DNA of 32,000 bases from Candidatus Heimdallarchaeota archaeon. GTDB lineage: Archaea > Asgardarchaeota > Heimdallarchaeia > Heimdallarchaeales > Heimdallarchaeaceae. Location: positions 1 through 32,000 of the forward strand of contig DAOVER010000027.1 in NCBI GenBank assembly GCA_030668875.1, in the 5' to 3' direction. The position numbers and the translations under genes were made by a program. Below, piece by piece: positions 4,771 through 17,756 of this stretch. The notes under the pieces were generated by a model. The model was not told the DNA's origin. It searched no databases and saw only the letters and a program-made list of their open reading frames with translations. Every line of letters starts with the position of its first letter. The first letter of the stretch is position 1.

Positions 4771-6822
4771 ATGAATCGAAAGAAACAGAGAATATTACTT
4801 CTGTCATTAATATCAATTATAATCGCACCTAGCTTAGTTTCAGGAGCTGAATATTATTCTTTCAATGTAGGGGATTCTTATTACTGGACTATTAAAGTTG
4901 AAGGAACTATTTCCTTGATTCTTGATCCAGATAATTCTGTTAATAAAGATCTTTACTTAAAAGCTCAGATATTTGAATGCGATAGATTGGGGACACCTAG
5001 TTATGTTTCAAATATTAGAATCAAACCTAGCTTTGTAGGATCATCTGTAACTTTTGATGACTATTGGAATAGTGTACACCTTTATACTTCATTTATACAA
5101 AAACGATTTTATCTATTCGGATTGCTTTTCATACCTTTAGAATACAGTTCATCTCAAAGTTATATTAACTATTTAGACAGTAACGGTTTTGATGTGACTA
5201 CTACATCTTCAAGTAGTATCTTAACCTATACATCATCAACAGGTGCAACTCACACCTTGAAATACGATAACAAAGGCATCCTTGATTCATATGTCAAAAA
5301 CTATGATCATAACCAAATAAGTGTGAAGCGCGCATTGTCAGTGGGTGGAATAATAGGGTTGGGGATAGGTGGATTAGTTATAATAATAGGTCTGATAGCT
5401 TTGACAGTAATTCTTGTGAGAAGAAAAAGGAGAGCGTCAGCATCTTTTGACTTATCAGAAAAACCAAAGTCAAAACCTGTATATCGTTTTCAAGAACCCA
5501 ATTACACTGGAATAAGTTCACCATCACAAGGAGCACCTAAACAAACTTTGAGGGATTCTAGTGAAAAGACACTCGGACTACCATTTGCTAAATATCAATT
5601 AAACAGACAGTTTTATGCTGAAGCTAGTTTTGGTATCATCATTCTTCTTTTCATATTAATTAATGATACCATAATCTCACAGAGTTTCTATCTACATTTA
5701 ACTGAAATTACCTACAGTTACCAAATTTGGAATGGTATCGAAATCAATTTTCTATATAGATTATTCGTTGAAACAAGTATCTTTACAATAATATTATGTG
5801 CCATCACATTTATTCTAGCATTAATATCCCCATTAGATTTAGATAAAAATCTAAGTCAAGAGGAATTGGCAAAAAACATCCTAGTAAAGATCTGCTTCCT
5901 TGTTACAAGTATTTTCTCTTTAATATCTTTCATTGTTCAAAGATCAACTGCAAACACATTGATTGAAGGTCTCTATGAGGATTTTGAGTTAGTAATGTTA
6001 AAAAACAAAACAGCATACACTTTTGAAGTTTTAGCAGTTATCACGTTACTCGTAATATTGTGTATCATGCCATTGATATACAAAAATTCAGATCTCTTCT
6101 CATTTTACAAACCAGCATTTTATGTTATGTCTTTAGGATTGATATTTTTCATTATTGCTGGTTTTATTGCTAGTTCATTCTACGAAAAAATGGTTTTAGA
6201 TTTATTTCTAACGGAAGAAACCGCATTAAGTCAATATAGAACAGGAGCAATATTCACAGAAATTGCTTATTTCATGATTATGTTATCAATGATGATTTGG
6301 GTAATTTCATTGGCTAGAAAAAGAGGAGGAGTAATTATCATAGGGGCAATATTAATCACATTTTTAACCGCTCTTTTTGAATTCCTGGATAGTTATTTAC
6401 TTCTACAATATAACTTATCTGAAATATACTTTGAAATAGTTTTGTTCGAAGATGTGCTTCAGCGCCACCAAGCTTTTTCCAGCATCGCTTCAATACTATT
6501 TATTTCTTTAATTTTTCTAGGAATAGTATTAAGATTACAATTGTCTTCTGATTCACAAACAACTATTTCTAGCGATATAGCTAGAAGAAGATTTACCCCA
6601 GAAGAGAGAATGAAAATAGCTTCTTCACAAGCTTATAAAAGAGCGCAAGTACAAACTGGAGAGAGAGCTCAAGTAAGACATGAATATCAAGGTGAAATTC
6701 TGGAACCAATTAGAATTTCTTTATGTCCACTTTGTAAGGAAATAATTGAGGAAGACAGTCAATTTTGCAGGTATTGTGGGGCTAGGTTAAGTAATACACC
6801 TGATAGGAGGAAAAGATCATGA
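4771..6822 (+). CDS. Polytopic membrane protein: signal peptide, extracellular domain, TM anchor, multi-TM domain and C-terminal zinc ribbon
   Basis: MNRKKQRILLLSLISIIIAPSLVSG signal. TM followed by RRKRR, about 9-10 further hydrophobic helices, then CPLC...CRYCG. ATG 4771 preferred to GTG 4741. Confidence 0.85.
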   Translation: MNRKKQRILLLSLISIIIAPSLVSGAEYYSFNVGDSYYWTIKVEGTISLILDPDNSVNKDLYLKAQIFECDRLGTPSYVSNIRIKPSFVGSSVTFDDYWNSVHLYTSFIQKRFYLFGLLFIPLEYSSSQSYINYLDSNGFDVTTTSSSSILTYTSSTGATHTLKYDNKGILDSYVKNYDHNQISVKRALSVGGIIGLGIGGLVIIIGLIALTVILVRRKRRASASFDLSEKPKSKPVYRFQEPNYTGISSPSQGAPKQTLRDSSEKTLGLPFAKYQLNRQFYAEASFGIIILLFILINDTIISQSFYLHLTEITYSYQIWNGIEINFLYRLFVETSIFTIILCAITFILALISPLDLDKNLSQEELAKNILVKICFLVTSIFSLISFIVQRSTANTLIEGLYEDFELVMLKNKTAYTFEVLAVITLLVILCIMPLIYKNSDLFSFYKPAFYVMSLGLIFFIIAGFIASSFYEKMVLDLFLTEETALSQYRTGAIFTEIAYFMIMLSMMIWVISLARKRGGVIIIGAILITFLTALFEFLDSYLLLQYNLSEIYFEIVLFEDVLQRHQAFSSIASILFISLIFLGIVLRLQLSSDSQTTISSDIARRRFTPEERMKIASSQAYKRAQVQTGERAQVRHEYQGEILEPIRISLCPLCKEIIEEDSQFCRYCGARLSNTPDRRKRS

Positions 6823-8105
6823 GTAATAAATTTATCAACAATCAAGGAGATACAGCTCTTTCAGGTCAAACTAACCTTAATGATCATAGGATTTCAGAAG
6901 GGAATTTAATAAAAATATCTCTTGTTATTGTATCACTTGTTACTTCGATATATCTTTTCTTCTTTGATAGTTTTTTAACAACTCAAACAGATTCATTAAA
7001 TTACTTATCTGCAATATATGAGGATGACCTAGCTGATTTAGTTATGATACAATTTAACATCTACAGTTTTGCTCGTTTTGATACAAACGTTAATGGTTTT
7101 GTTTTTGGAAGTTTACTTATACTTATAGGTATTCTTGGCATATTAGCTATCATTGATTCACAATCTAGAGGGTCATCGCTTGCAATAAAAACAGCTATAT
7201 TTCAATTACCTACAGGAATATTACTAATAATCTCAGCAAGTTTATCTAAAACTGGGGTTAAAAGATTAGTAGAGCTGGAATCACCAATGTATGCTATGTC
7301 TGCTTTCCAGACTGCGTATTGGTTAGAGACCATATGCTACGTGCTGTTTTTAACTACTACAATTATGTTAGCTATAAGTGCAAGAAGGAAAAAATATAGG
7401 GCTTTGGAAACTGCACTAATCGTAATTAGTATAGGATTTTTCATAATAATTATTGCATCAATTTTCTCAATCAGTACGGTAAATAAGTATATCAATAGCA
7501 ATTTTGCAGAACTAGAACTATTTGTTTCATATACAGAAGTAGAAATAGCTGGCAGTTTAATTACTGCTCTTATATTGACTGCGTTAGCGAAGATAATCCT
7601 TGTAATCGCATTTTTATTAGGTTTGATTAGTTTCCTACGAAGAACTAACAAACAATTTACAATCATTATCTTTGTTACCACTTTGCTTTACGGCATCTTG
7701 AAATTGATTAACTCTATACTTTCCTTAATTTATAGTTTGTCAATTTTTTCTCCTGATGCTGAAATCGATGTGTATATGGTATACTATAAACGACTTATGA
7801 CTACAATTGGTTTAACCAATATGAATATGGCTATTTATTGGATTGTCTTCATCGTGGGAGTTTTTGGTGTATTGAAATCAATAGTTTTTGAAGAAATGTC
7901 TACCATAACTAGTCAGAAAACACCTAGAATATCTAGAACAGCAGATATACCATTCCGAGAAAATGTTCTACCTTATGAGAAACCACTAATTCCTCAACAA
8001 CAAGCAGCAGCTCCTGAATCAAGGTTCTGTACAGTTTGTGGAACCATTGCTGAGGATGATAGTATTGTTTGTGCCACTTGTGGAGCGTATGTACAAAACG
8101 AGTAA
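6819..8105 (+). CDS. Polytopic membrane protein with C-terminal zinc ribbon
   Basis: About 9 hydrophobic segments and C-terminal FCTVCG...CATCG. ATGA 4-bp overlap with the upstream gene. Confidence 0.85.
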   Translation: MSNKFINNQGDTALSGQTNLNDHRISEGNLIKISLVIVSLVTSIYLFFFDSFLTTQTDSLNYLSAIYEDDLADLVMIQFNIYSFARFDTNVNGFVFGSLLILIGILGILAIIDSQSRGSSLAIKTAIFQLPTGILLIISASLSKTGVKRLVELESPMYAMSAFQTAYWLETICYVLFLTTTIMLAISARRKKYRALETALIVISIGFFIIIIASIFSISTVNKYINSNFAELELFVSYTEVEIAGSLITALILTALAKIILVIAFLLGLISFLRRTNKQFTIIIFVTTLLYGILKLINSILSLIYSLSIFSPDAEIDVYMVYYKRLMTTIGLTNMNMAIYWIVFIVGVFGVLKSIVFEEMSTITSQKTPRISRTADIPFRENVLPYEKPLIPQQQAAAPESRFCTVCGTIAEDDSIVCATCGAYVQNE

Positions 8106-8243
8106 ATGTTTGGAAAATGTTGACGAAAGAAGTTTTCTAAATTAAAAAAATCTTAACTAATCAATCAAAGAAGATAAGTTTTCTAGATAGATTGGTTTGT
8201 TCACTTTTCATATTCGTGGAATGAACAAAAAACGAGAATATAT

Positions 8244-10346
8244 TTATTTTCTTCTTCTTTTGGAGAATCCTATTACTGTAATTACCATGGCTATGAAAAT
8301 CATTGTAGCAGGAATATAACTGACAATAAAAGTGCCATCATTTGGATCTATCTCTGTATAAAAATCATCATAAATTGAGATGTTTAGTTTGTAAAAGATA
8401 CTCGAAGAAGAATCTGTAATCCAAAGATATCCATCATCATCATAACAAATGCCATTTGGATTGATTTGTTGAAATTGATACTCCTGTACTATAGTATTAT
8501 TTTCTGGGAAAATCCGGAAAATTGTTCGTAAATCTTTATCACATACCCACAAGAATATACCATCATACACCATCCCTTTTATATTAGGTCCAGGTGTTGT
8601 TATTTCGGAAATAATTGATCCATCGTTTAAATCAATTTTATATATCTTAGCAGTCTGCTTATTTCCTACAAACATATAAGGATCATTAGAATCAGTATTG
8701 AAAACTGTAAGTCCATTTTCATAGATTACATCGATTTGTAGAATTTCCACAGTATTGAAGTTTTCATCTAATATGTACAGATATGACTTGCCTTTCTCCA
8801 TACAGAAGAAGTGTGATCCATTTGTATCAAAGTTATTAATTCTTATCCCTGAAATCTCCCAAGAATCTACAAACTCCTTAGTTAGTGAATCAAATTGATG
8901 AATAACATCTGTTCTTTGTGTAGCAACCAGCAAGTTATCGTTATAAGAAACGATCCCACTAGGATTTGAGTCAGGGGAGACAAAATACGAATCTACATAG
9001 CTATCATGAAGAATTGATTCAGAGACATTAATACTAATTTGCAAATTCCTAACCCAAAATTCTTGATTCCAATCCATAGACCAACCATCACTAAAGTAAA
9101 AAAAGAGAATAATCTCTTCGTATCCATCTAAAATGAATGTTTTATTGTATTGTTCAAAATCAGTCATTGGAATGTCAGAACTTAAAATAACTGGATAATT
9201 GAATATTTCTTGTTTAAATACAGAATCACAAATTCTAACATCTAATCTTGCAGCATAAGTATAATCAGAAATAGCTTTTCCTTCAAAGGATAAACTGAGT
9301 AAACCATTAGTAACAGGGATCGAAGCACTAGCACCAACCCACAAATCATGTGTATAACCTTCTTCAAGTACATGAAGAACAGTATCATTGACATCATAAA
9401 TCAAAGGTTCATAGGGAGAAACATTTAGAGGTAAAGAGCAATCTCTCTCACATACTCCGAAGGACCAGTCAAAGTCACCTATTGTAAGGAAAGGTTCTTC
9501 AGAAACACGAACATAAGTTTGATCTATTGCAGAATTATTGAATCGGTCTGTTACATTAATAGTAAATGTGTGGGTTCCTATTTCTAAATTATCAACATTA
9601 AGACTCACTGTATCAAGATTATTCCAACCTCTCGATTCCACCAATTCTTCATCTTTATAAATCTCAAAAGTACCAGGGCATGAATCAGAAAGTGTCCAGC
9701 TGATTTGATTACCATAGGAACTTTGTTCAATAAATAAATCCCCACTACTAGAAATTACAGGAGAATCTTCGTCAATAAACTCTTCAAAAGCAAGATTCCT
9801 TATCCATACTTCTTGGTTCCAATTAGCAGTTGTTGCATCAATGAAGAAAAAGAAAAGATAAACCTCAGTATACCCTTCTAATTCAAAACGATAATTAAAT
9901 TGATGATAACCGGTATCAAAAGGTGCAAAGTCTATTTCTCCTTGTAAATCGTAAGCACGAGCACCTGTTAAATACTTCATATCAGAAGAATTTATAGTAA
10001 GGAGACCAAAAGTGACAGCTTCTTTGATATCTGCTAGAGCTCTAGCTTCAAAAGTTAGAGAGAGAACACCATCAGTAACTGGAACTAAGGCATATACACC
10101 AGCAAAATAGTGATATTCGCCTCCAGAGGTTTCAAAAATATGAATGTGAGTGGAGTTAATCTCACTATCAAAATTCGCAGGAGTGTAATCTGCAAAACCT
10201 GTTTCGTAATTAGGTAGGAAACTACCTTCATTCCAAGTTAAATCCTCAATTATTGTACCGATTTCAGAAGAAAAACTAACTGCTACAATTGTACAAGTCA
10301 TTAGAAGGATAATAATAGTTGTTATTGAAAGTTTCTTCCCATTCAT
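8244..10346 (-). CDS. Membrane-anchored cell-surface protein: two repeated beta-sandwich domains flanking an Ig-like domain, plus a beta-propeller and C-terminal TM
   Basis: Signal MNGKKLSITTIIILLMTCTIVAVSFS (ATG 10346; 10352 is an alternative). Internal duplication (VPVTDGVLSLTFEAR / IPVTNGLLSLSFEGK; WNQEVWIRNL / WNQEFWVRNL). Ig-like DSPVISS...ISWTLSD...THTFTINVTD. Propeller blades PNGICYDDDGYLWITD. TM followed by KRRRK. Confidence 0.85.
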   Translation of the reverse strand: MNGKKLSITTIIILLMTCTIVAVSFSSEIGTIIEDLTWNEGSFLPNYETGFADYTPANFDSEINSTHIHIFETSGGEYHYFAGVYALVPVTDGVLSLTFEARALADIKEAVTFGLLTINSSDMKYLTGARAYDLQGEIDFAPFDTGYHQFNYRFELEGYTEVYLFFFFIDATTANWNQEVWIRNLAFEEFIDEDSPVISSSGDLFIEQSSYGNQISWTLSDSCPGTFEIYKDEELVESRGWNNLDTVSLNVDNLEIGTHTFTINVTDRFNNSAIDQTYVRVSEEPFLTIGDFDWSFGVCERDCSLPLNVSPYEPLIYDVNDTVLHVLEEGYTHDLWVGASASIPVTNGLLSLSFEGKAISDYTYAARLDVRICDSVFKQEIFNYPVILSSDIPMTDFEQYNKTFILDGYEEIILFFYFSDGWSMDWNQEFWVRNLQISINVSESILHDSYVDSYFVSPDSNPSGIVSYNDNLLVATQRTDVIHQFDSLTKEFVDSWEISGIRINNFDTNGSHFFCMEKGKSYLYILDENFNTVEILQIDVIYENGLTVFNTDSNDPYMFVGNKQTAKIYKIDLNDGSIISEITTPGPNIKGMVYDGIFLWVCDKDLRTIFRIFPENNTIVQEYQFQQINPNGICYDDDGYLWITDSSSSIFYKLNISIYDDFYTEIDPNDGTFIVSYIPATMIFIAMVITVIGFSKRRRK
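9035..10235 (-). repeat. Intragenic domain duplication (copies approx. 9788-10235 and 9035-9467)
   Basis: Two ~145-aa segments share aligned motifs (H..E.G; VPVT.G.LSL.FE; F.L.GY.E..LFF.F.D....WNQE.W.RNL). Confidence 0.8.
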
Positions 10347-10512: not shown

Positions 10513-11979
10513 ATGGCTACATCCCTAGATTCATTACCGTTATTAAGAGATGGGAAGGAATATTTAAGTCAAAGCAGAAAGACTTTGATTGGAACTAAAG
10601 GGGAAAAACTGCTGGACGTTGCATTGGCACCTGAAATCCACATTCAGATGAGTCTTCCAATTAACAAAAAAGCAGGTTTTTCACTATTACAAGATTTAAG
10701 CATAGATGAAATTGTAGACATTTATGTTGACGCTGGAAGAATTTTCGCTCAAGATATGTTAATTAATAACATCTCGACCTCACTGGATGATTTTGCAGAA
10801 TTGATCACGCGTTCCACAGGGATGCCCATCACCTATGTGAACAACGCTTTGAATATGATCCCACATGTTTTCAAGAAAAGAGAACTAAAAAGGATTCTAA
10901 AAGCAAACAGCCCAACAGGAAATCTAGATATTTACGATGACAATTTTGGAGTAAGAGGGAATACACGTTTTGGTTGGAGTCCAAGAGGAAGAAATGTTGG
11001 CGTTGCACTACCGGGTAACCATCCTGGAGTATCGCTTATGGGCGCTTTAATGCCTCTTTTCAAGATGCCAGCTATATTGCGAGCATCATCTAATGAACCC
11101 TTTACTTCTTTCCGTATTTGCAAGAGTTTGTGGGAAGCAGGACTACCACCTGAATCATTATTTCACTTTGTTACAGATCACTCTGTAGTAGACACTATCG
11201 TTAGAAAAAGTGACCTTGGAGTGATATTTGGCTCAGATTGGATCCTAAAAGCTTACGAACATAATGAGAACATCAAGACTTATGGTCCCGGTAAGAGCAA
11301 GATACTTATCGATATTGAAAACATGTCCCCTACTCTACAAGAACTATCTCAAGAAATAGCATATAGAAGTATCTCTTTAGATGGTGGAAGAGGGTGTATC
11401 AATGCAAGTGGAATTGTTTACAATGGTGATGACGGTTACGAAGAATTTCGAGATAATTTAGCTCAAAAATTAGCTTCAGCAGAACCTTTGGATCCAATGA
11501 ATCCACGTGCAGAGATTCCAGCTATGAACCCTGATGCTGCAAGAGGACTTTATAAATTCATTAAAAGTCGGATGGATGATAAAATCACAAACATTACGGC
11601 GAAAATCAGAGACTCTGAAGATTTTCTTGTAATAAAAGATGACTTAGCTTATCTCATGCCAACCTTACTTGAGTTGGATGAAAAACATTCTATGAGAACT
11701 GATGAGTACCCATTTGCTTTTGGGACAATAACAAAACCAAACGATTACTATCCTGAGGAGCTTTTAGAAAATTCCTTATCCGTAGGCTATCTTACTGATC
11801 ACCCAAATGAAGCTAAGAAACTACTTCGTAATCCAACCATCCAGAAAATATTTGTTAATGATCAAACATTTCTAATGGATATTGCAGCGCCTCATGAAGG
11901 ATTTAACGCAGAATTTCTCTACAGAAGCAAAGCAACAAATTATGATGGAGTTAATAACTTTCTAAAAACTGATAATTGA
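10513..11979 (+). CDS. Aldehyde dehydrogenase superfamily protein, LuxC-like acyl-CoA/acyl-protein reductase
   Basis: PGNHP (oxyanion Asn), RASSNEPFT (LuxC-like K/R-x-SS-x-D/EP), catalytic Cys in GGRGCINAS. YGPGKSKILI sits where hydrolytic ALDHs have ELGGK. Confidence 0.8.
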   Translation: MATSLDSLPLLRDGKEYLSQSRKTLIGTKGEKLLDVALAPEIHIQMSLPINKKAGFSLLQDLSIDEIVDIYVDAGRIFAQDMLINNISTSLDDFAELITRSTGMPITYVNNALNMIPHVFKKRELKRILKANSPTGNLDIYDDNFGVRGNTRFGWSPRGRNVGVALPGNHPGVSLMGALMPLFKMPAILRASSNEPFTSFRICKSLWEAGLPPESLFHFVTDHSVVDTIVRKSDLGVIFGSDWILKAYEHNENIKTYGPGKSKILIDIENMSPTLQELSQEIAYRSISLDGGRGCINASGIVYNGDDGYEEFRDNLAQKLASAEPLDPMNPRAEIPAMNPDAARGLYKFIKSRMDDKITNITAKIRDSEDFLVIKDDLAYLMPTLLELDEKHSMRTDEYPFAFGTITKPNDYYPEELLENSLSVGYLTDHPNEAKKLLRNPTIQKIFVNDQTFLMDIAAPHEGFNAEFLYRSKATNYDGVNNFLKTDN

Positions 11980-11984
11980 TTAAT

Positions 11985-12020
11985 CTCCCTCTTTTTCCTA
12001 TTACATTTACTTTTTATTTT
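11985..12020 (+). terminator. Probable oligo-T archaeal terminator after the reductase gene
   Basis: Pyrimidine/T tracts ctccctctttttccta...tttttatttt immediately after the stop. Confidence 0.4.
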
Positions 12021-12039
12021 GTAACAAATTAGTACTCTT

Positions 12040-12180
12040 ATGATTTGCCCTCGTTGTCGTAATGTGCAGAAGAAAAAAGTTTCTATGAAAACAGTAAAAC
12101 GAAAAGGTGGGTTTCACAAACAAACAAAATTCCAATGTCCTAATTGCGGACTCATACGCATGAAAAAGAATAGGAACTAG
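12040..12180 (+). CDS. Small basic Cys4 zinc-finger protein (46 aa; CPxC...CPxCG)
   Basis: MICPRCRNVQKKKVSMKTVKRKGGFHKQTKFQCPNCGLIRMKKNRN*. The two CxxC knuckles are in zinc-ribbon spacing. Below the ORF-track length cut-off. Confidence 0.75.
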   Translation: MICPRCRNVQKKKVSMKTVKRKGGFHKQTKFQCPNCGLIRMKKNRN

Positions 12181-12373
12181 AAATCTTATTTGGATTTAGA
12201 TTTGATTTTCACAGAGAAAGAAGATATGATACTAGCTAATAAACACTCATAAATATTTTCTCATTCTTTGAACTGCATTAACAGTAAATAACAAAAAAGT
12301 CAGCTTTTTTTGATGAAAATTGTTCTCAGTATATAAACCAATTTCAGAATAATAAGTAAACGATCTTTGCAGC

Positions 12374-12399
12374 AACTCAATTTCAAACAAAATTGAGTT
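12374..12399. promoter_or_regulatory. Perfect 10-bp inverted repeat (candidate operator or 5'UTR hairpin) upstream of the Hef-like/XPD operon
   Basis: AACTCAATTT-CAAACA-AAATTGAGTT, located between a TATA-like GTATATAAA (about 12330-12338) and the start at 12416. Confidence 0.5.
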
Positions 12400-12415
12400 C
12401 AGTTAGATATCTTGT

Positions 12416-14206
12416 GTGGATAAGATGAAGGAAAAAGGAGATACATTTAGTCAAATTGTGTTGGGAGTTGCTTCAAAGGAAAACACTCTCCTATTCCTCA
12501 CGCCATATTATGACAAATCTCATGTATCGTCAATTCTAATCAGATATTTCTTAAAAAAACATCCTGAACAAAAAATTGGTATAATCCTACCTGATACGGA
12601 TGTTTTCAATGAGTATTATTCTAAACTCAGTTCAGAAAAGGAAGATGTTTTTCATCTAACTACAGTTAATTCTTCAGATTCTGATGATAGTCGGAGAGAG
12701 AAGTATTCCAAAAACAACATCTTAATCATCACCCCTCACCTACTAAGGAACGATACTTTCCGCAAATTTATCTCTCCTAATCAATTCAGATTACTCATAG
12801 TTGATCAATCTCATTTAGCTAAAGGAAAACACGCAATTGTTAAGCTTCTAGAAATCTTTCATCAGAATAATCCTATGGTCAGAACAGTAGGATATACTTC
12901 CCATAATCTTAACAAGGTTGAAAATATAGTCGAGATTTGTAAGAATCTCTTAATCATGAAAATAGAGGTTTATGAAAATTTTAGTCCCCGCGCTGCTTAC
13001 GAGAGAACAAAGGCAAAAGAGCAAACAATTATCGTCCCTCTGAATAAACCAATCTACGATTTCTGTTTTGAAATTAATCGGTATATTAGAGAATACACAG
13101 AATTTCTTAAGAGTAAAGGAATCATTAAACCCATAACTGTCAGAAAGAATTTTCCACAATTTATTTCTGATGTCCGTTCCAAATTCGAACAAAATGAACA
13201 ACGGATCATTATTCGCAAAACTATTGAGTTAATTAATTTTCAGATGTTGAAAGATTTAATAGAGACTTCAGGTACAAAAGCAGCTATACGTTACATGGAA
13301 AATCTCCGAGCTAGAGTGGTCAAAACAGAAGAAGCTGAATATATCAAAAATCTACATGTTAATTTCGTTCGAACACCAATTTTCGCTGAGTTTTTAGAAG
13401 AACTTAATCAAATAAGCGAGAAGACCAACCACCCAAAGTTTTCAAGGTTAAAACAGTTAGTCCATCAATTAAAAATGAAAAGGAACTTCTCTCAATTTCA
13501 GGTTATTGCATCAAATAAAGCTGTTTTAGCTAGTCTACCAGCTTATTTCGATGAAATTGGTATGCAAAGTAAGATTGTATCTCCAAGTAGAAAAAAGGAA
13601 AAAGAGAGTGTGATTGATGACTTCAAGAATGGAAATATTCAAGTGCTTATCTCTAGTAAGGTTTTGGATATTAAATCAGATGCTTTAATCTTCTTTAATA
13701 ATCCAATAAAATATACAACTTTTATTGAAAGAGCAAGTAGTGAGAGCGAGGTTTACATACTGCTCACACACAGATCTAATGAAGAGAGAGTATATCACAA
13801 TTTTAGAAACCGTGAGAAGAATTTTAAGAATAAGTTAGATGACCCGCGCATTCATCAAATCTTAGTACAAAACCAACAACAGATGTTCAAGAAAAATATG
13901 GACAAAAAGATGGATGTTAGAACTAGAGCAATGGTGAATGTAGTTAGTGCTTTAGCAAAAAATAGGAAAGAGAAAAAGGGTATAAGAAAAGAAGTCGAAC
14001 ATAATTTGGAAGAACTGAAGTACATCCAATTTCTAACAAAATGCTCAATAGAAGATGCAAAGTTGATTTTCAATGAAAATCCGGAAATTGAAAAAATCAA
14101 ACCTGATTTATCTACACAGAAACTATTGAAGAATATTTTCTCTGAAAAAAAAGCAGAACATTTGTTTAGTAACATAAAAGGAAGGAAAGAACTTGTATCA
14201 ACTTAA
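12416..14206 (+). CDS. Hef/FANCM/XPF-like SF2 helicase homologue with degenerate catalytic motifs (pseudo-helicase)
   Basis: Collinear with Hef: KENTLLFL, IITPHLLRND, LLIVDQSH, HPKFSRLKQL, NEERVY..FRNREK. Walker A is TPYYDKS, motif II is DQSH, motif VI (QRxGRxGR) is absent. Confidence 0.8.
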   Translation: MDKMKEKGDTFSQIVLGVASKENTLLFLTPYYDKSHVSSILIRYFLKKHPEQKIGIILPDTDVFNEYYSKLSSEKEDVFHLTTVNSSDSDDSRREKYSKNNILIITPHLLRNDTFRKFISPNQFRLLIVDQSHLAKGKHAIVKLLEIFHQNNPMVRTVGYTSHNLNKVENIVEICKNLLIMKIEVYENFSPRAAYERTKAKEQTIIVPLNKPIYDFCFEINRYIREYTEFLKSKGIIKPITVRKNFPQFISDVRSKFEQNEQRIIIRKTIELINFQMLKDLIETSGTKAAIRYMENLRARVVKTEEAEYIKNLHVNFVRTPIFAEFLEELNQISEKTNHPKFSRLKQLVHQLKMKRNFSQFQVIASNKAVLASLPAYFDEIGMQSKIVSPSRKKEKESVIDDFKNGNIQVLISSKVLDIKSDALIFFNNPIKYTTFIERASSESEVYILLTHRSNEERVYHNFRNREKNFKNKLDDPRIHQILVQNQQQMFKKNMDKKMDVRTRAMVNVVSALAKNRKEKKGIRKEVEHNLEELKYIQFLTKCSIEDAKLIFNENPEIEKIKPDLSTQKLLKNIFSEKKAEHLFSNIKGRKELVST

Positions 14207-15986
14207 CGAAGAAGAGACACAGTACTGGGAAACGGTCAAAATCTTATTTCCTTACCCTCAGATGAAGTTACCTCAGCAAAAAATAATTCAATCAATAATT
14301 TCATCATCTAACCCTTTGCTCGTAAGTTCTCATACAGGTGTTGGGAAGACAGCTGCAGTTATGGCTGCATATCTAGCTATTAAAAAACCCGATGAAAAGA
14401 TAATTGTTTTTGTAAGAACCAAAGCTCAAATCAACGTATTCCTCAGAGAATTATCTAATATACACAATCAGATAGTTCAACATTGGAACATTCTCGAAGA
14501 CCATTTTGGGAATTTCCCGATATTCTTACCCTTTCTTGGGAAAAACGAATTGTGTTTGAAAGCTAAGAAAGAGTATCCTGGAGAGATGTATACACACATC
14601 TGTAACTTAACCAGATGCCCTTTAAAAGCTAAAACACAGAGAGCAACAAGAGAAGATTTACTAGATTCAGTAAGAGGACTATATCATTCCTTTTCACATA
14701 TTATTTCTAGAGAAGACCTATATTCAAATCTGAATGCAAAAAACTATTGTCCATATTTCTATTCATATTATCTCATGCAAAAAGCAGATGTTATTATAAC
14801 CTCATATCCTTTCCTTGAGAACCAAGCATTATTTGCAAGATTGTTCTATAGTATTGATACACCGATTTCAAAGACACTTGCTCTAGTTGATGAAGCTCAC
14901 AATTTGTATAAACCCATCAATCAAGAAATCAATAAAAAAATTATTGAAAACGCTCTAGAAGAGTTATCGAACAGTATTTTCTCCGATTTGTTGGATTTAA
15001 CCAATAATAACAAAGTAATTGAAATAGATTTTTCAGAGCTAGAAATAAAACGATTGGAAGAGGATTTATTCAGTTTACTTCAGTCACAAATGGCTTACAA
15101 ACAACCCATGGCTTTCAATGCATATCTTGCTTATCATTTCTTGAAGTCAGCTCAAAACAAAAAGGTAATTTCGGATGGAAAGAAATTGTTAGTAGTTAAT
15201 ACTAGATCATCAGACATTTTAAGCAATTTCAGCAAAGCAAAACGATTGACACTTATGTCTGGGAGTTTAGAACCTGTCCGTTCATATCAAAGAATCTTCC
15301 AATTACCCCGTTCTAGAACATTGAGAGTTTTACCTCCTAAAGAAGAAATTGAGAGTAGATATTTTGTTGTTGTTAACCAGAAATTGAATGCTAAGTATGA
15401 TAATAGAACACCTGAATATTATATCCTTGTAAGTAGCACGATTAGAAATCTTTTCGAAGAAATACCAGGACACACACTTGTTTTTGTTCCAAGCTATAGT
15501 TATATCGAAAAATTACTTGACACAAATGTGCTTCAACCAGATATTGTAGAATCACCTGGGCAAGATATTACAACTTTACAAGCAATCATTGCCAGCTCAG
15601 AAGAGAAAAAACTAATAATTTGCGTTACTGGAGGAAAAATAGCTGAAGGAATTGAATTTACGGTAGATGGCAAAAGTCTAATTAAAGGAATAATCATAAC
15701 CGCACTACCATTCCCCCCTCCATCAGAAGAGAACAAAATCATTCATGAAGACTTATCAAAACGGTTCGATCCTAAACTTGCTCGAGATTTTTCATTAATA
15801 ATACCAATGCTCCAACGCTTATCTCAAAGCTTTGGAAGAGCTATAAGAAATAAGGGTGATAAAGCAGTTCACATTCTTTTAGATCCAAGAGGTACAAAGT
15901 ATACTCGTGAGTTCAATTTCGAACGGCATACATCTATTAAAACGTTGAAAGAGAAGATAAAGTTGTTTTTTAAAGAATTTAAGTGA
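14193..15986 (+). CDS. xpd: XPD/Rad3/DinG-family Fe-S DNA helicase
   Basis: Q motif FPY..MK..Q, Walker A HTGVGKT, four Fe-S Cys (GKNELC, HIC, TRC, YCPY), DEAH, motif III SGSL, GGKIAEGI, motif VI QSFGRAIR. TTG start overlaps the upstream gene by 14 nt. Confidence 0.92.
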   Translation: MYQLNEEETQYWETVKILFPYPQMKLPQQKIIQSIISSSNPLLVSSHTGVGKTAAVMAAYLAIKKPDEKIIVFVRTKAQINVFLRELSNIHNQIVQHWNILEDHFGNFPIFLPFLGKNELCLKAKKEYPGEMYTHICNLTRCPLKAKTQRATREDLLDSVRGLYHSFSHIISREDLYSNLNAKNYCPYFYSYYLMQKADVIITSYPFLENQALFARLFYSIDTPISKTLALVDEAHNLYKPINQEINKKIIENALEELSNSIFSDLLDLTNNNKVIEIDFSELEIKRLEEDLFSLLQSQMAYKQPMAFNAYLAYHFLKSAQNKKVISDGKKLLVVNTRSSDILSNFSKAKRLTLMSGSLEPVRSYQRIFQLPRSRTLRVLPPKEEIESRYFVVVNQKLNAKYDNRTPEYYILVSSTIRNLFEEIPGHTLVFVPSYSYIEKLLDTNVLQPDIVESPGQDITTLQAIIASSEEKKLIICVTGGKIAEGIEFTVDGKSLIKGIIITALPFPPPSEENKIIHEDLSKRFDPKLARDFSLIIPMLQRLSQSFGRAIRNKGDKAVHILLDPRGTKYTREFNFERHTSIKTLKEKIKLFFKEFK

Positions 15987-16005
15987 ACACTCATCACGAT
16001 GAAGA

Positions 16006-16902
16006 TTAAACATCTCTGAAATTTCTAGCGATTACCAATCCAAAAACTTCTGTTCCAGTATGACATGTGATTATATTTCCAAGAAGAAAATCCACCAATT
16101 TTGTTATTTTTGGGATCTTCATCTTAAGAAGCTTTTCTCTGAAATAATCATTTTTTTCTCTAGGTCTTAACTGTGCAAAACTTATGTGAATTTCATCATC
16201 CTTATTAAAGAATTCCTGAATCAATCGAATAATTTTGTTTATTGCTCGCTCAAATCCTATCTCTCTTCCCACAGATTTAAGTTTACCACCCACAAGTGAT
16301 AATATAGGATAAGCATGGAGAAGATCTCCTAACAGATATGTTGCCCTTCCGATTCTACCACCTTCAAATAGTTTTTTTAAATCTGAAACTGTAAAAAAAA
16401 CTTTGATGTCATGATCTCTGCTCTCATCTAATTTTTTAATAATCTCGTCTACTTCTAACCCTTGATCTACCAATTGTTTAGCAATCATAGCTAGATACCC
16501 AGCAGCAAGTGAAACACCTTTAGAATCATAAACTGTTATTCCAGAACAATTCGGGTTTTTTCTTTTAAACTGCTTGATCACACTTCTTATAGCATTTATA
16601 GTCCCAGAAAGTTTTTCACCTACATGTATCATTATAAGATGATCATAATCTTGGTGTTTCTCTATTGCTTCCCATATGCTACTGGGGCTAGGTAAACTTG
16701 TTTGAGACTTCTTTGAATTATCAATCATGTCATAGAATTCTGATTGAGGAATAGAGCCATCGTCTAGAATGTCTTCACCATCAATTACTACATAACATGG
16801 AATAACTTCTAAATCGTGTTTTTCGACTTGTTCTGGTGTAAGATTACCTGTAGAATCAGTAATAATTTTGATTTTCACATCATTCAAAAAGAATAACTTC
16901 AT
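16006..16902 (-). CDS. degV: DegV family fatty-acid-binding protein
   Basis: IITDST, TSLPS, EKLSGT, VYDSKGVSLAAG, L..GGRIG, YPIL, CHTG motifs typical of DegV/FakB. Confidence 0.93.
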   Translation of the reverse strand: MKLFFLNDVKIKIITDSTGNLTPEQVEKHDLEVIPCYVVIDGEDILDDGSIPQSEFYDMIDNSKKSQTSLPSPSSIWEAIEKHQDYDHLIMIHVGEKLSGTINAIRSVIKQFKRKNPNCSGITVYDSKGVSLAAGYLAMIAKQLVDQGLEVDEIIKKLDESRDHDIKVFFTVSDLKKLFEGGRIGRATYLLGDLLHAYPILSLVGGKLKSVGREIGFERAINKIIRLIQEFFNKDDEIHISFAQLRPREKNDYFREKLLKMKIPKITKLVDFLLGNIITCHTGTEVFGLVIARNFRDV

Positions 16903-17164: not shown

Positions 17165-17608
17165 TTACTCCCCTATGTCCTCATTCCACAGTTCAGGATG
17201 AAGATTAATGAAATCTTTCATCAATTGCTTACATTCTACATTATTGTAGTTAATAATCTCAACTCCTTGTTGTCGGAGATAATCCTCTGGTCCTTTGAAA
17301 GTAGAGTTTTCACCAATTATGATTTTAGGAATCTTGTAGAGTAAAACTGCTCCACTACACATATTACAAGGAGAAAGAGTAGAATAAAGAATAGATTTCT
17401 TGTAATCAACTGATTTCAACCTTCCAGCATTTTCCAGACAATCCATCTCGGCATGAAGTATTGAACTTCTCTTTTGAACGCGTTTGTTATAACCCCTTCC
17501 TACAATCTGACTATCAATAACGAGAACTGAACCAATTGGAATTCCGCCTTCTTCCAAACCTTTTCTAGCTTCAAGTATAGCTTCTTGCATGAAATCATCA
17601 GCAGACAT
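17165..17608 (-). CDS. Cytosine deaminase, yeast Fcy1-type (cytidine/deoxycytidylate deaminase family)
   Basis: HAE and PCNMC zinc motifs, GGIPIGSVLV, IIGEN..F, C-terminal WNEDIGE characteristic of Fcy1-like enzymes. ATG 17608 (MSADDF) is preferred over 17692. Confidence 0.88.
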   Translation of the reverse strand: MSADDFMQEAILEARKGLEEGGIPIGSVLVIDSQIVGRGYNKRVQKRSSILHAEMDCLENAGRLKSVDYKKSILYSTLSPCNMCSGAVLLYKIPKIIIGENSTFKGPEDYLRQQGVEIINYNNVECKQLMKDFINLHPELWNEDIGE

Positions 17609-17756
17609 GCTTAGAACTATGTTATGATCAATATTTGACTTTATCGATAGAGAAATATAAGAATATTTTGTGTACTTTTTTTGCATATACAATTAACAAA
17701 TACTAACTAACTTAAGAGCAAGAAAAATTTAATACAGATTGAATTAAAACTATAAT

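Follow-up and report, generated by a model that had tools for sequence, protein, structure and literature searches.

The 32,000-nucleotide stretch of the Candidatus Heimdallarchaeota archaeon contig analysed here (hereafter the window) carries on its forward strand two overlapping genes, which we call dead-Hef (12425–14206) and XPD2 (14193–15986). On the evidence of its sequence, dead-Hef is a lineage-specific paralogue of the Hef/FANCM helicases that has turned into a pseudo-enzyme and has been kept by selection. Its ATPase motifs are degenerate or deleted, its nuclease domain is gone, and it stands in an uninterrupted frame ahead of a motif-complete helicase of the XPD family, the start of which it overlaps. 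In a literature search, neither a motif-dead Hef paralogue nor a partner of XPD was found described for Asgard archaea.

Degenerate helicase motifs and loss of the nuclease domain

The open reading frame at 12416–14206 (+) is uninterrupted and encodes the protein designated P0001. Its true start is most likely the ATG at 12425, which gives 593 residues, because the database orthologues are 593 residues long and begin with MK(E/D)KGDT; the alternative is a GTG at 12416, three codons upstream. Residue-by-residue alignment with Hef located a degenerate motif I (Walker A) at 12500–12520 (+), which reads TPYYDKS where Hef has PTGLGKT, and a degenerate motif II at 12803–12814 (+), which reads DQSH where Hef has DEAH. 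Motif III is YTSH in place of TAS, motif V lacks EEG, and motif VI has lost its QRxGRTGR segment by deletion. Two signatures specific to Hef, TPxLLxND and HPK, are retained, the latter (H339-P340-K341) at 13430–13438 (+) and common to canonical Hef, with K341 invariant in all 80 aligned sequences. A first-pass annotation of this DNA, made from the letters alone, had described the altered motifs (TPYYDKS, DQSH, TSH, motif V and motif VI) and the persistence of TP....ND and HPK, and all of these were borne out at residue level.

Profile searches placed the similarity in the helicase part of Hef. The NCBIfam model of the Hef nuclease, NF010337, matched dead-Hef with an E-value (E) of 1.2e-34 over profile positions 22–558 of 781, which cover the helicase part only; the score of 119.5 bits lies below the equivalog cut-off of 610 bits, so that dead-Hef falls outside the Hef equivalog. 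In a sequence search of the PDB, the closest solved relatives were the helicase domain of Pyrococcus furiosus Hef (1wp9, E 4e-14) and the human FANCM translocase (9el5, E 1.4e-12). When a profile of the dead-Hef family was aligned with one of 18 full-length Hefs using hhalign, columns 11–491 paired with Hef columns 12–516 (probability 100%, E 1.5e-52). Neither an ERCC4 nuclease nor a nuclease-like domain (GDxn-ERKxxxD) was found in dead-Hef with Pfam and NCBIfam, and the hhalign alignment ends at Hef column 516, before the nuclease. In the AlphaFold2 (AF2) model described below, the gap between the helicase part and the C-terminal domain is only about ten residues. The whole ERCC4 nuclease domain has, on this evidence, been removed cleanly. 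The segment MDVRTRA was considered as a remnant of the ERCC4 start motif (VDxRE), which found no support, as the Hef profile alignment ends earlier and the model puts this segment at the start of a long helix.

The AF2 model of dead-Hef, computed from an 80-row alignment, has a mean predicted local distance difference test (pLDDT) score of 87.3. It comprises a RecA1-like lobe (P0001 residues 1–200), a helical insert (residues 208–340), a RecA2-like lobe (residues 341–452), three long helices (residues 455–520), a low-confidence flexible linker (residues 520–530) and a four-helix C-terminal domain. AF2, Foldseek and hhalign all point to two RecA-like lobes with a helical insert between them, the arrangement by which a superfamily 2 (SF2) helicase module of the Hef/FANCM/XPF type is recognised. 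The top Foldseek matches of the model in the PDB were 1wp9 (E 6.5e-24, template-modelling score by target 0.76) and DNA-bound FANCM translocase 9el5 (E 1.1e-23), followed by the helicases of RIG-I, MDA5 and Dicer.

Distribution of the family and selection on the gene

A word-indexed search returned 25 homologues of dead-Hef, nearly all of about 590 residues and 39–91% identical, with one at 26%; those that carry names come from Heimdallarchaeota or Asgard metagenome-assembled genomes. When 1.84 billion cluster representatives were searched exhaustively with HMMER, only ten 50%-identity clusters reached E<=1e-30, beyond which scores fall to about 105 bits, where ordinary Hefs of 700–830 residues begin. 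The same search recovered no family member longer than 650 residues, and hence no nuclease-fused form. Among 399 Asgard genomes, matches to the dead-Hef profile above 200 bits were found only within the GTDB family Heimdallarchaeaceae, and the remaining matches, at 75–113 bits, were canonical Hefs. The carriers comprise 14 of the 24 genomes of the source genus (g1, including the source genome itself), both genomes of g2, the single genomes of g3 and g4, and both genomes of g5, where g2–g5 denote other genera of Heimdallarchaeaceae and g5 is Candidatus Heimdallarchaeum (including Ca. H. aukensis). In a maximum-likelihood tree of 82 sequences, the family formed one clade with a support of 100 and a long stem, its attachment among the Hefs being left unplaced, with long-branch warnings.

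The first-pass annotation had advised looking for a canonical Hef in the same genome. One is present on contig C68 (85934–88294; 850 bits on NF010337), with helicase and nuclease motifs intact, and it matches TIGR00596 (rad1/XPF) at 59.8 bits through its nuclease part. A motif-complete canonical Hef is likewise kept by the other dead-Hef carriers whose weaker matches were listed.

Across 23 family members, no conservation is seen where motifs I, II and VI should lie, whereas all canonical Hefs compared keep these motifs. The motif I position reads FDTS, FSIN, IDLN, FDYR and others, and the motif II position DQSH, DEAH, ANAG, TDAI, NDVK, FEPS and others. Some 35 positions are invariant or nearly so over the same members, and those common to canonical Hef include Q13, N23, R93, T106-P107, N112-D113, E283 and H339-P340-K341. 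Pairwise Nei–Gojobori estimates on unsaturated orthologue pairs gave a ratio of non-synonymous to synonymous substitution rates (dN/dS) of 0.12–0.13 for dead-Hef at dS values of 0.29–0.74, and of 0.06–0.08 for XPD2. Because of this ratio, dead-Hef is to be read as a gene under purifying selection and not as a decaying one, and the earlier description of a full-length, uninterrupted Hef-type frame held up.

These data also bear on the possibility that dead-Hef is merely a recently inactivated Hef pseudogene whose frame is still open. The loss of all ATPase motifs and the free drift of the motif positions among relatives speak for it, but the low dN/dS, the intact frames of 512–650 residues in lineages down to 25% identity, the near-invariant residues and the confident AF2 model make it extremely improbable. 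The stops reported inside some genomic matches are the terminal stops of the genes themselves.

Dead-Hef evolves faster than its neighbours, with 35–41% identity where XPD2 keeps 57–67%. The LuxC/aldehyde-dehydrogenase-like gene upstream of it in the window (10513–11979) is also found upstream of the deep-branching family member P0032 (L062, 1317–2774), where it is 62% identical compared with 29% for dead-Hef, which indicates that the neighbourhood is old and that dead-Hef is fast-evolving.

The C-terminal domain

The C-terminal domain (residues 531–593; 14006–14194, +) is modelled as four helices in an arrangement like that of a tandem helix-hairpin-helix domain, (HhH)2, in which the hairpin glycines are lost (LTKCSxEDA ... 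IFSEKKAEHLF). Modelled alone, it reached a pLDDT of 83. Structural comparison with VIA-align gave the acidic repeat (AR) of NusA (Z 8.7), FAAP24 (Z 6.7), ERCC1 (Z 6.2) and FANCM (Z 5.9), as well as the HhH domain of P. furiosus Hef, 1x2i (Z 6.7, root-mean-square deviation 2.7 over 62 residues), which are middling Z values for a domain this small and helical. Foldseek produced the same list, with no match at E<=0.001, and hhalign against the Hef HhH2 profile found the expected register at E 0.038 and a probability of 1.4%. Going by the models, the tail is likely (HhH)2-like and homologous to the Hef tail.

In the XPF/MUS81 family, the (HhH)2 domain mediates dimerisation, and the best structural neighbours of the dead-Hef tail include FAAP24, ERCC1, FANCM and the Hef HhH domain. 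Dead-Hef might then be a non-catalytic dimer partner or regulator of canonical Hef, bound through its (HhH)2 tail in the manner of ERCC1, FAAP24 or EME1, with XPD2 adjacent only through a common pathway; the retention of canonical Hef in the source genome and in the other carriers mentioned is in keeping with this. We nevertheless regard such a role as quite improbable. Dead-Hef lacks the nuclease-like domain that is the main dimer interface of the superfamily, the similarity of its tail to the Hef HhH2 sequence is not significant and the hairpin glycines are gone, the tail is absent from g3, g4 and one g1 sub-lineage (members of 512–542 residues), and no genomic linkage was found between dead-Hef and canonical Hef.

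In the g1 sub-lineage in question (L028, genome G020; P0018–P0020), the shortened dead-Hef has 520–535 residues without the HhH-like tail, and XPD2 comes next after a gap of 23 nucleotides (nt), with no overlap.

An XPD-family helicase encoded downstream

XPD2 (P0002; 14193–15986, +) has 597 residues and matches Pfam DEAD_2 (52.8 bits) and Helicase_C_2 (79.4 bits). Its Walker A GKT is encoded at 14343–14351 (+), its DEAH at 14889–14900 (+), and the codons of its four iron–sulphur (Fe–S) cysteines lie at 14553, 14601, 14616 and 14748 (+). Invariant over 22 orthologues are G51/K52, D233-E234-x-H236, C121/C137/C142/C186 and, in motif VI, Q545/G548/R549/R552. The intactness of the downstream helicase, with all its motifs and the four cysteines, was therefore correctly called in the first-pass annotation; its identity as the canonical XPD of excision repair was not, since XPD2 is one of three paralogues and scores 123.9 bits on TIGR00604 (rad3), below the cut-off of 246.95. 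Its best PDB match is Sulfolobus acidocaldarius XPD (3crv, 3.4e-28). The canonical XPD of the source genome is a 733-residue paralogue on contig C36, which scores 360.1 bits on TIGR00604 and has Thermoplasma and eukaryotic XPD as its best matches. The third paralogue, of 782 residues, is on contig C73 and aligns over its full length with PDB entry 9kqh ('DNA 5'-3' helicase') at 534 bits. The coordinates noted for these other XPD-family genes are C36:49148–49660 and C73:11590–11958 (L012, L014). Judged by these matches, XPD2 is an intact Fe–S helicase of the XPD family and a divergent paralogue within it.

Helicases of the XPD2 type (about 600 residues, 25–35% identity) are present in the majority of genomes of the class but almost absent from the rest of the phylum; the type therefore predates the dead-Hef family and exists without it.

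An assignment of XPD2 to type IV CRISPR defence as DinG/Csf4 was also considered, the PADLOC model PDLC01439 giving 191 bits on XPD2, and was rejected: the same model gives 362 bits on the canonical XPD and 408 on the third paralogue. No cas genes were found near XPD2, the neighbours of which (LuxC-like, DegV, deaminase, EamA and PAC2 genes) are read as housekeeping.

The gene junction and its conservation

The two frames overlap by exactly 14 nt, the figure first reported. At the junction (14180–14206, +), the hexamer GGAAGG (14180–14185) precedes the TTG start of XPD2 (14193–14195) by 7 nt, and the TAA stop of dead-Hef follows at 14204–14206. XPD2 stands directly downstream of dead-Hef in every g1 and g2 locus that is not cut by a contig end. 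At 12 of the 14 junctions in these genera, XPD2 starts at a TTG within dead-Hef, 14 nt (17 nt in one case) from the end of that gene, with GGAAGG 7–8 nt upstream of the TTG, and the conserved junctions span lineages with saturated synonymous sites and dead-Hef identity down to 35%. GGAAGG is read as Gly-Arg in the dead-Hef frame. Since AGG makes up only 11% of the arginine codons in these genes, and since the junction Gly is replaced by Asn or Gln in family members unlinked to XPD2, it is reasonable to regard GGAAGG as selected at the nucleotide level as a translation-initiation element. Dead-Hef and XPD2 are, by these features, co-translated in g1 and g2 from the overlapping TTG start.

Seven g1 genomes, which are 76–90% complete, lack both genes, so the module is dispensable. 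Four further genomes have only one of the pair, the gene in question being at a contig edge or a partial match.

Where XPD2 is not adjacent (g4 and g5), a gene of the RecA superfamily comes after dead-Hef. In g4 (L047), dead-Hef (7082–8710) is overlapped by a gene for an AAA_25/KaiC-like ATPase (8703–9734, 343 residues) that has no PDB sequence match. In g5 (L045), dead-Hef (6412–8220) is followed 359 nt downstream by a Rad51/RadA gene (8579–9670). The genes around the unlinked XPD2 of g4 and g5 gave no informative families.

Synonymous divergence differs between the two genes of the pair. In the comparison with L016 (genome G030), dS is 1.08 for dead-Hef (77% amino-acid identity) and 0.54 for XPD2 (94%), and in that with L017 (G023), it is 0.74 for dead-Hef (81%) and saturated for XPD2 (86%). 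These conflicting dS values suggest that related lineages have recombined, with a breakpoint close to the gene junction. A third gene found downstream of XPD2 in some species (289–333 residues, no family) was considered as a core part of the module and was rejected, as it is absent from the window and its only relative in the source genome, encoded elsewhere, is 29% identical.

Predicted complex and candidate function

The complex was predicted from full-length XPD2 and dead-Hef residues 200–596 with separate alignments. The interaction prediction score from aligned errors (ipSAE) was 0.58 (three runs 0.58, 0.59 and 0.53), compared with 0.24 for the best of three controls; partner pLDDT was at least 73, and at least 66% of the contacts were common to the runs. 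In the calibration, which is approximate here because our own alignments were used, 58 of 80 solved complexes and 2 of 110 mismatched pairs passed, and scores of 0.60 or less include only 7 of the 80 solved complexes and both mismatches that passed. With the conserved overlapping operon as a prior, the prediction modestly raises the odds that dead-Hef binds XPD2.

We give an even chance to the reading that dead-Hef is a non-catalytic, DNA-structure-recognising subunit that partners the XPD2 motor, where the binding of the two proteins, the binding of DNA junctions and a role at forks or in repair are what we infer. The insert domain and the HhH tail of dead-Hef would sit on branched or fork-like DNA, and dead-Hef would then recruit, position or regulate XPD2. 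As a 5'-3' Fe–S helicase, XPD2 would supply the ATP-driven unwinding that dead-Hef no longer performs. A more elaborate form of this proposal, which we advance tentatively and consider rather unlikely as a whole, is a split fork- or lesion-processing machine in Heimdallarchaeaceae, in which dead-Hef recognises branched DNA, XPD2 unwinds it and the overlapping start sets a fixed ratio, so that the arrangement of a dead Hef-type module with XPD, known from eukaryotic excision repair, would have been re-invented independently in archaea. The first-pass annotation had likewise suggested a dedicated pseudo-helicase that partners XPD; the maintenance of a motif-dead family agrees with it, and the physical partnership finds weak backing in silico.

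Several observations count against a DNA-recognising partner of XPD2. The complex score falls in the weak-support band of the calibration. Motifs Ia and V, the nucleic-acid-binding ones, are degenerate as well in the alignments of dead-Hef, so that DNA binding by its core is not assured, and the HhH tail is missing from the lineages noted above. XPD2-type genes occur class-wide in genomes that have no dead-Hef, and XPD2 therefore does not need dead-Hef as a partner. The conservation of the pair, to which the first-pass annotation had attached weight, is partial: the overlap is kept across two genera, but dead-Hef is not adjacent to XPD2 in the genera g3, g4 and g5 of the same family, and no XPD gene adjoins it on the contigs of P0027, P0029 and P0032. 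In g4 and g5, XPD2 lies 25–30 kb away on the opposite strand, standing alone. The joint absence of both genes from seven g1 genomes says little on function, as the loss of two adjacent genes is one deletion.

The restriction of the XPD2 adjacency to g1 and g2, the RecA-family genes overlapping or following dead-Hef in g4 and g5, and the faster evolution of dead-Hef than its neighbours would all suit a protein with an ATP-independent role of its own, either in binding or sensing nucleic acids or as a scaffold, for instance for RecA-family ATPases. The operon with XPD2 would in that case be derived co-expression without a stable complex. We hold this to be unlikely, because an overlap with a conserved start and a purine-rich motif is typical of subunits made in a fixed ratio, the complex prediction outscored all controls, and no other partner is conserved family-wide.

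Comparison with Hef, XPF, FANCM and XPD

Dead-Hef resembles archaeal Hef (P. furiosus; 1wp9 for the helicase, 1x2i for the HhH domain) in its SF2 lobes with a helical insert and in its C-terminal fold, which is probably (HhH)2-like. It also has in common with Hef the Q motif, TPxxxxND, an ETxG-like ExSG, HPK and a TxDE-type segment after lobe 2. Unlike Hef, it has no Walker A, DExH, motif V, motif VI or ERCC4 nuclease, and the hairpin glycines of its HhH domain are lost. The likeness to eukaryotic XPF/Rad1 is that of an SF2 module that derives from Hef, no longer functions as an ATPase and is kept for structure or interaction, in a family that works alongside an XPD helicase; XPF, however, has retained an active ERCC4 nuclease and forms a dimer with ERCC1. 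FANCM is the second-best structural match (9el5), and the tail of dead-Hef resembles the HhH2 domains of FAAP24 and FANCM, but FANCM has an active, ATP-dependent translocase motor and a nuclease domain that is degenerate, whereas in dead-Hef the motor is dead and the nuclease absent. XPD2, for its part, has the DEAD_2 and Helicase_C_2 domains, the four Fe–S cysteines and all the helicase motifs of archaeal XPD (S. acidocaldarius, Thermoplasma acidophilum) and the XPD/Rad3/DinG family. It differs from canonical XPD in scoring below the rad3 cut-off and in sharing its genome with a canonical XPD and a third paralogue.

Eukaryotic XPF is a known case of a dead helicase module from a Hef-like ancestor, and the superfamily is marked by dead nuclease partners (ERCC1, FAAP24 and EME1); the origins of both are inferred from end states only. 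The present archaeal lineage displays a pseudo-helicase event with the live parent gene in the same genome, a bounded family and a conserved overlapping candidate partner. Domain loss in the family is graded, the nuclease being always gone and the HhH tail sometimes gone. Since dead-Hef occurs only in a single archaeal family and resembles the eukaryotic proteins in no special way, its inactivation is independent of that of XPF, a parallel and not an ancestor. TIGR00596 gave no match at E<=1 for P0001, and there was no XPF chain among the PDB sequence matches of dead-Hef. The relevance to the origin of XPF and FANCM that the first-pass annotation had seen is not upheld for a family confined to Heimdallarchaeaceae and lacking the nuclease: dead-Hef has no direct bearing on that origin, and its scope is narrower than was proposed. 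Should dead-Hef and XPD2 bind, dead-Hef would be, as far as the literature search shows, the first protein put forward as a dedicated partner of an archaeal helicase of the XPD family. The pair would offer a simple system for what a motor-less SF2 scaffold contributes and for how pseudo-helicases become targeting subunits.

Other features of the window and related loci

A search of the window with Rfam gave no RNA family, and a repeat scan of 11900–16100 returned only short, chance-level matches. The sequencing runs that match the stretch are of marine-sediment DNA only, with no RNA run among those listed.

In the 445-nt spacer upstream of dead-Hef, a 46-residue open reading frame with two CxxC pairs was found at 12040–12180 (+); its resemblance to the HVO_2753-like small zinc finger is sub-threshold, at 20.9 bits against a cut-off of 33.2. 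A gene of the cytidine/deoxycytidylate-deaminase fold, which also matches the MafB19-like deaminase, lies at 17165–17692 (-) between DegV and EamA and was not called at that place in the syntenic loci L009 and L010.

Among the canonical Hefs, those of family f7 (L036 and L037) and P0143 are motif-complete, and where the ERCC4 nuclease signature has ERK they have EYK. These Hefs lie about 10 kb from the XPD2-type gene, on the same contig, in six of that genus's genomes.

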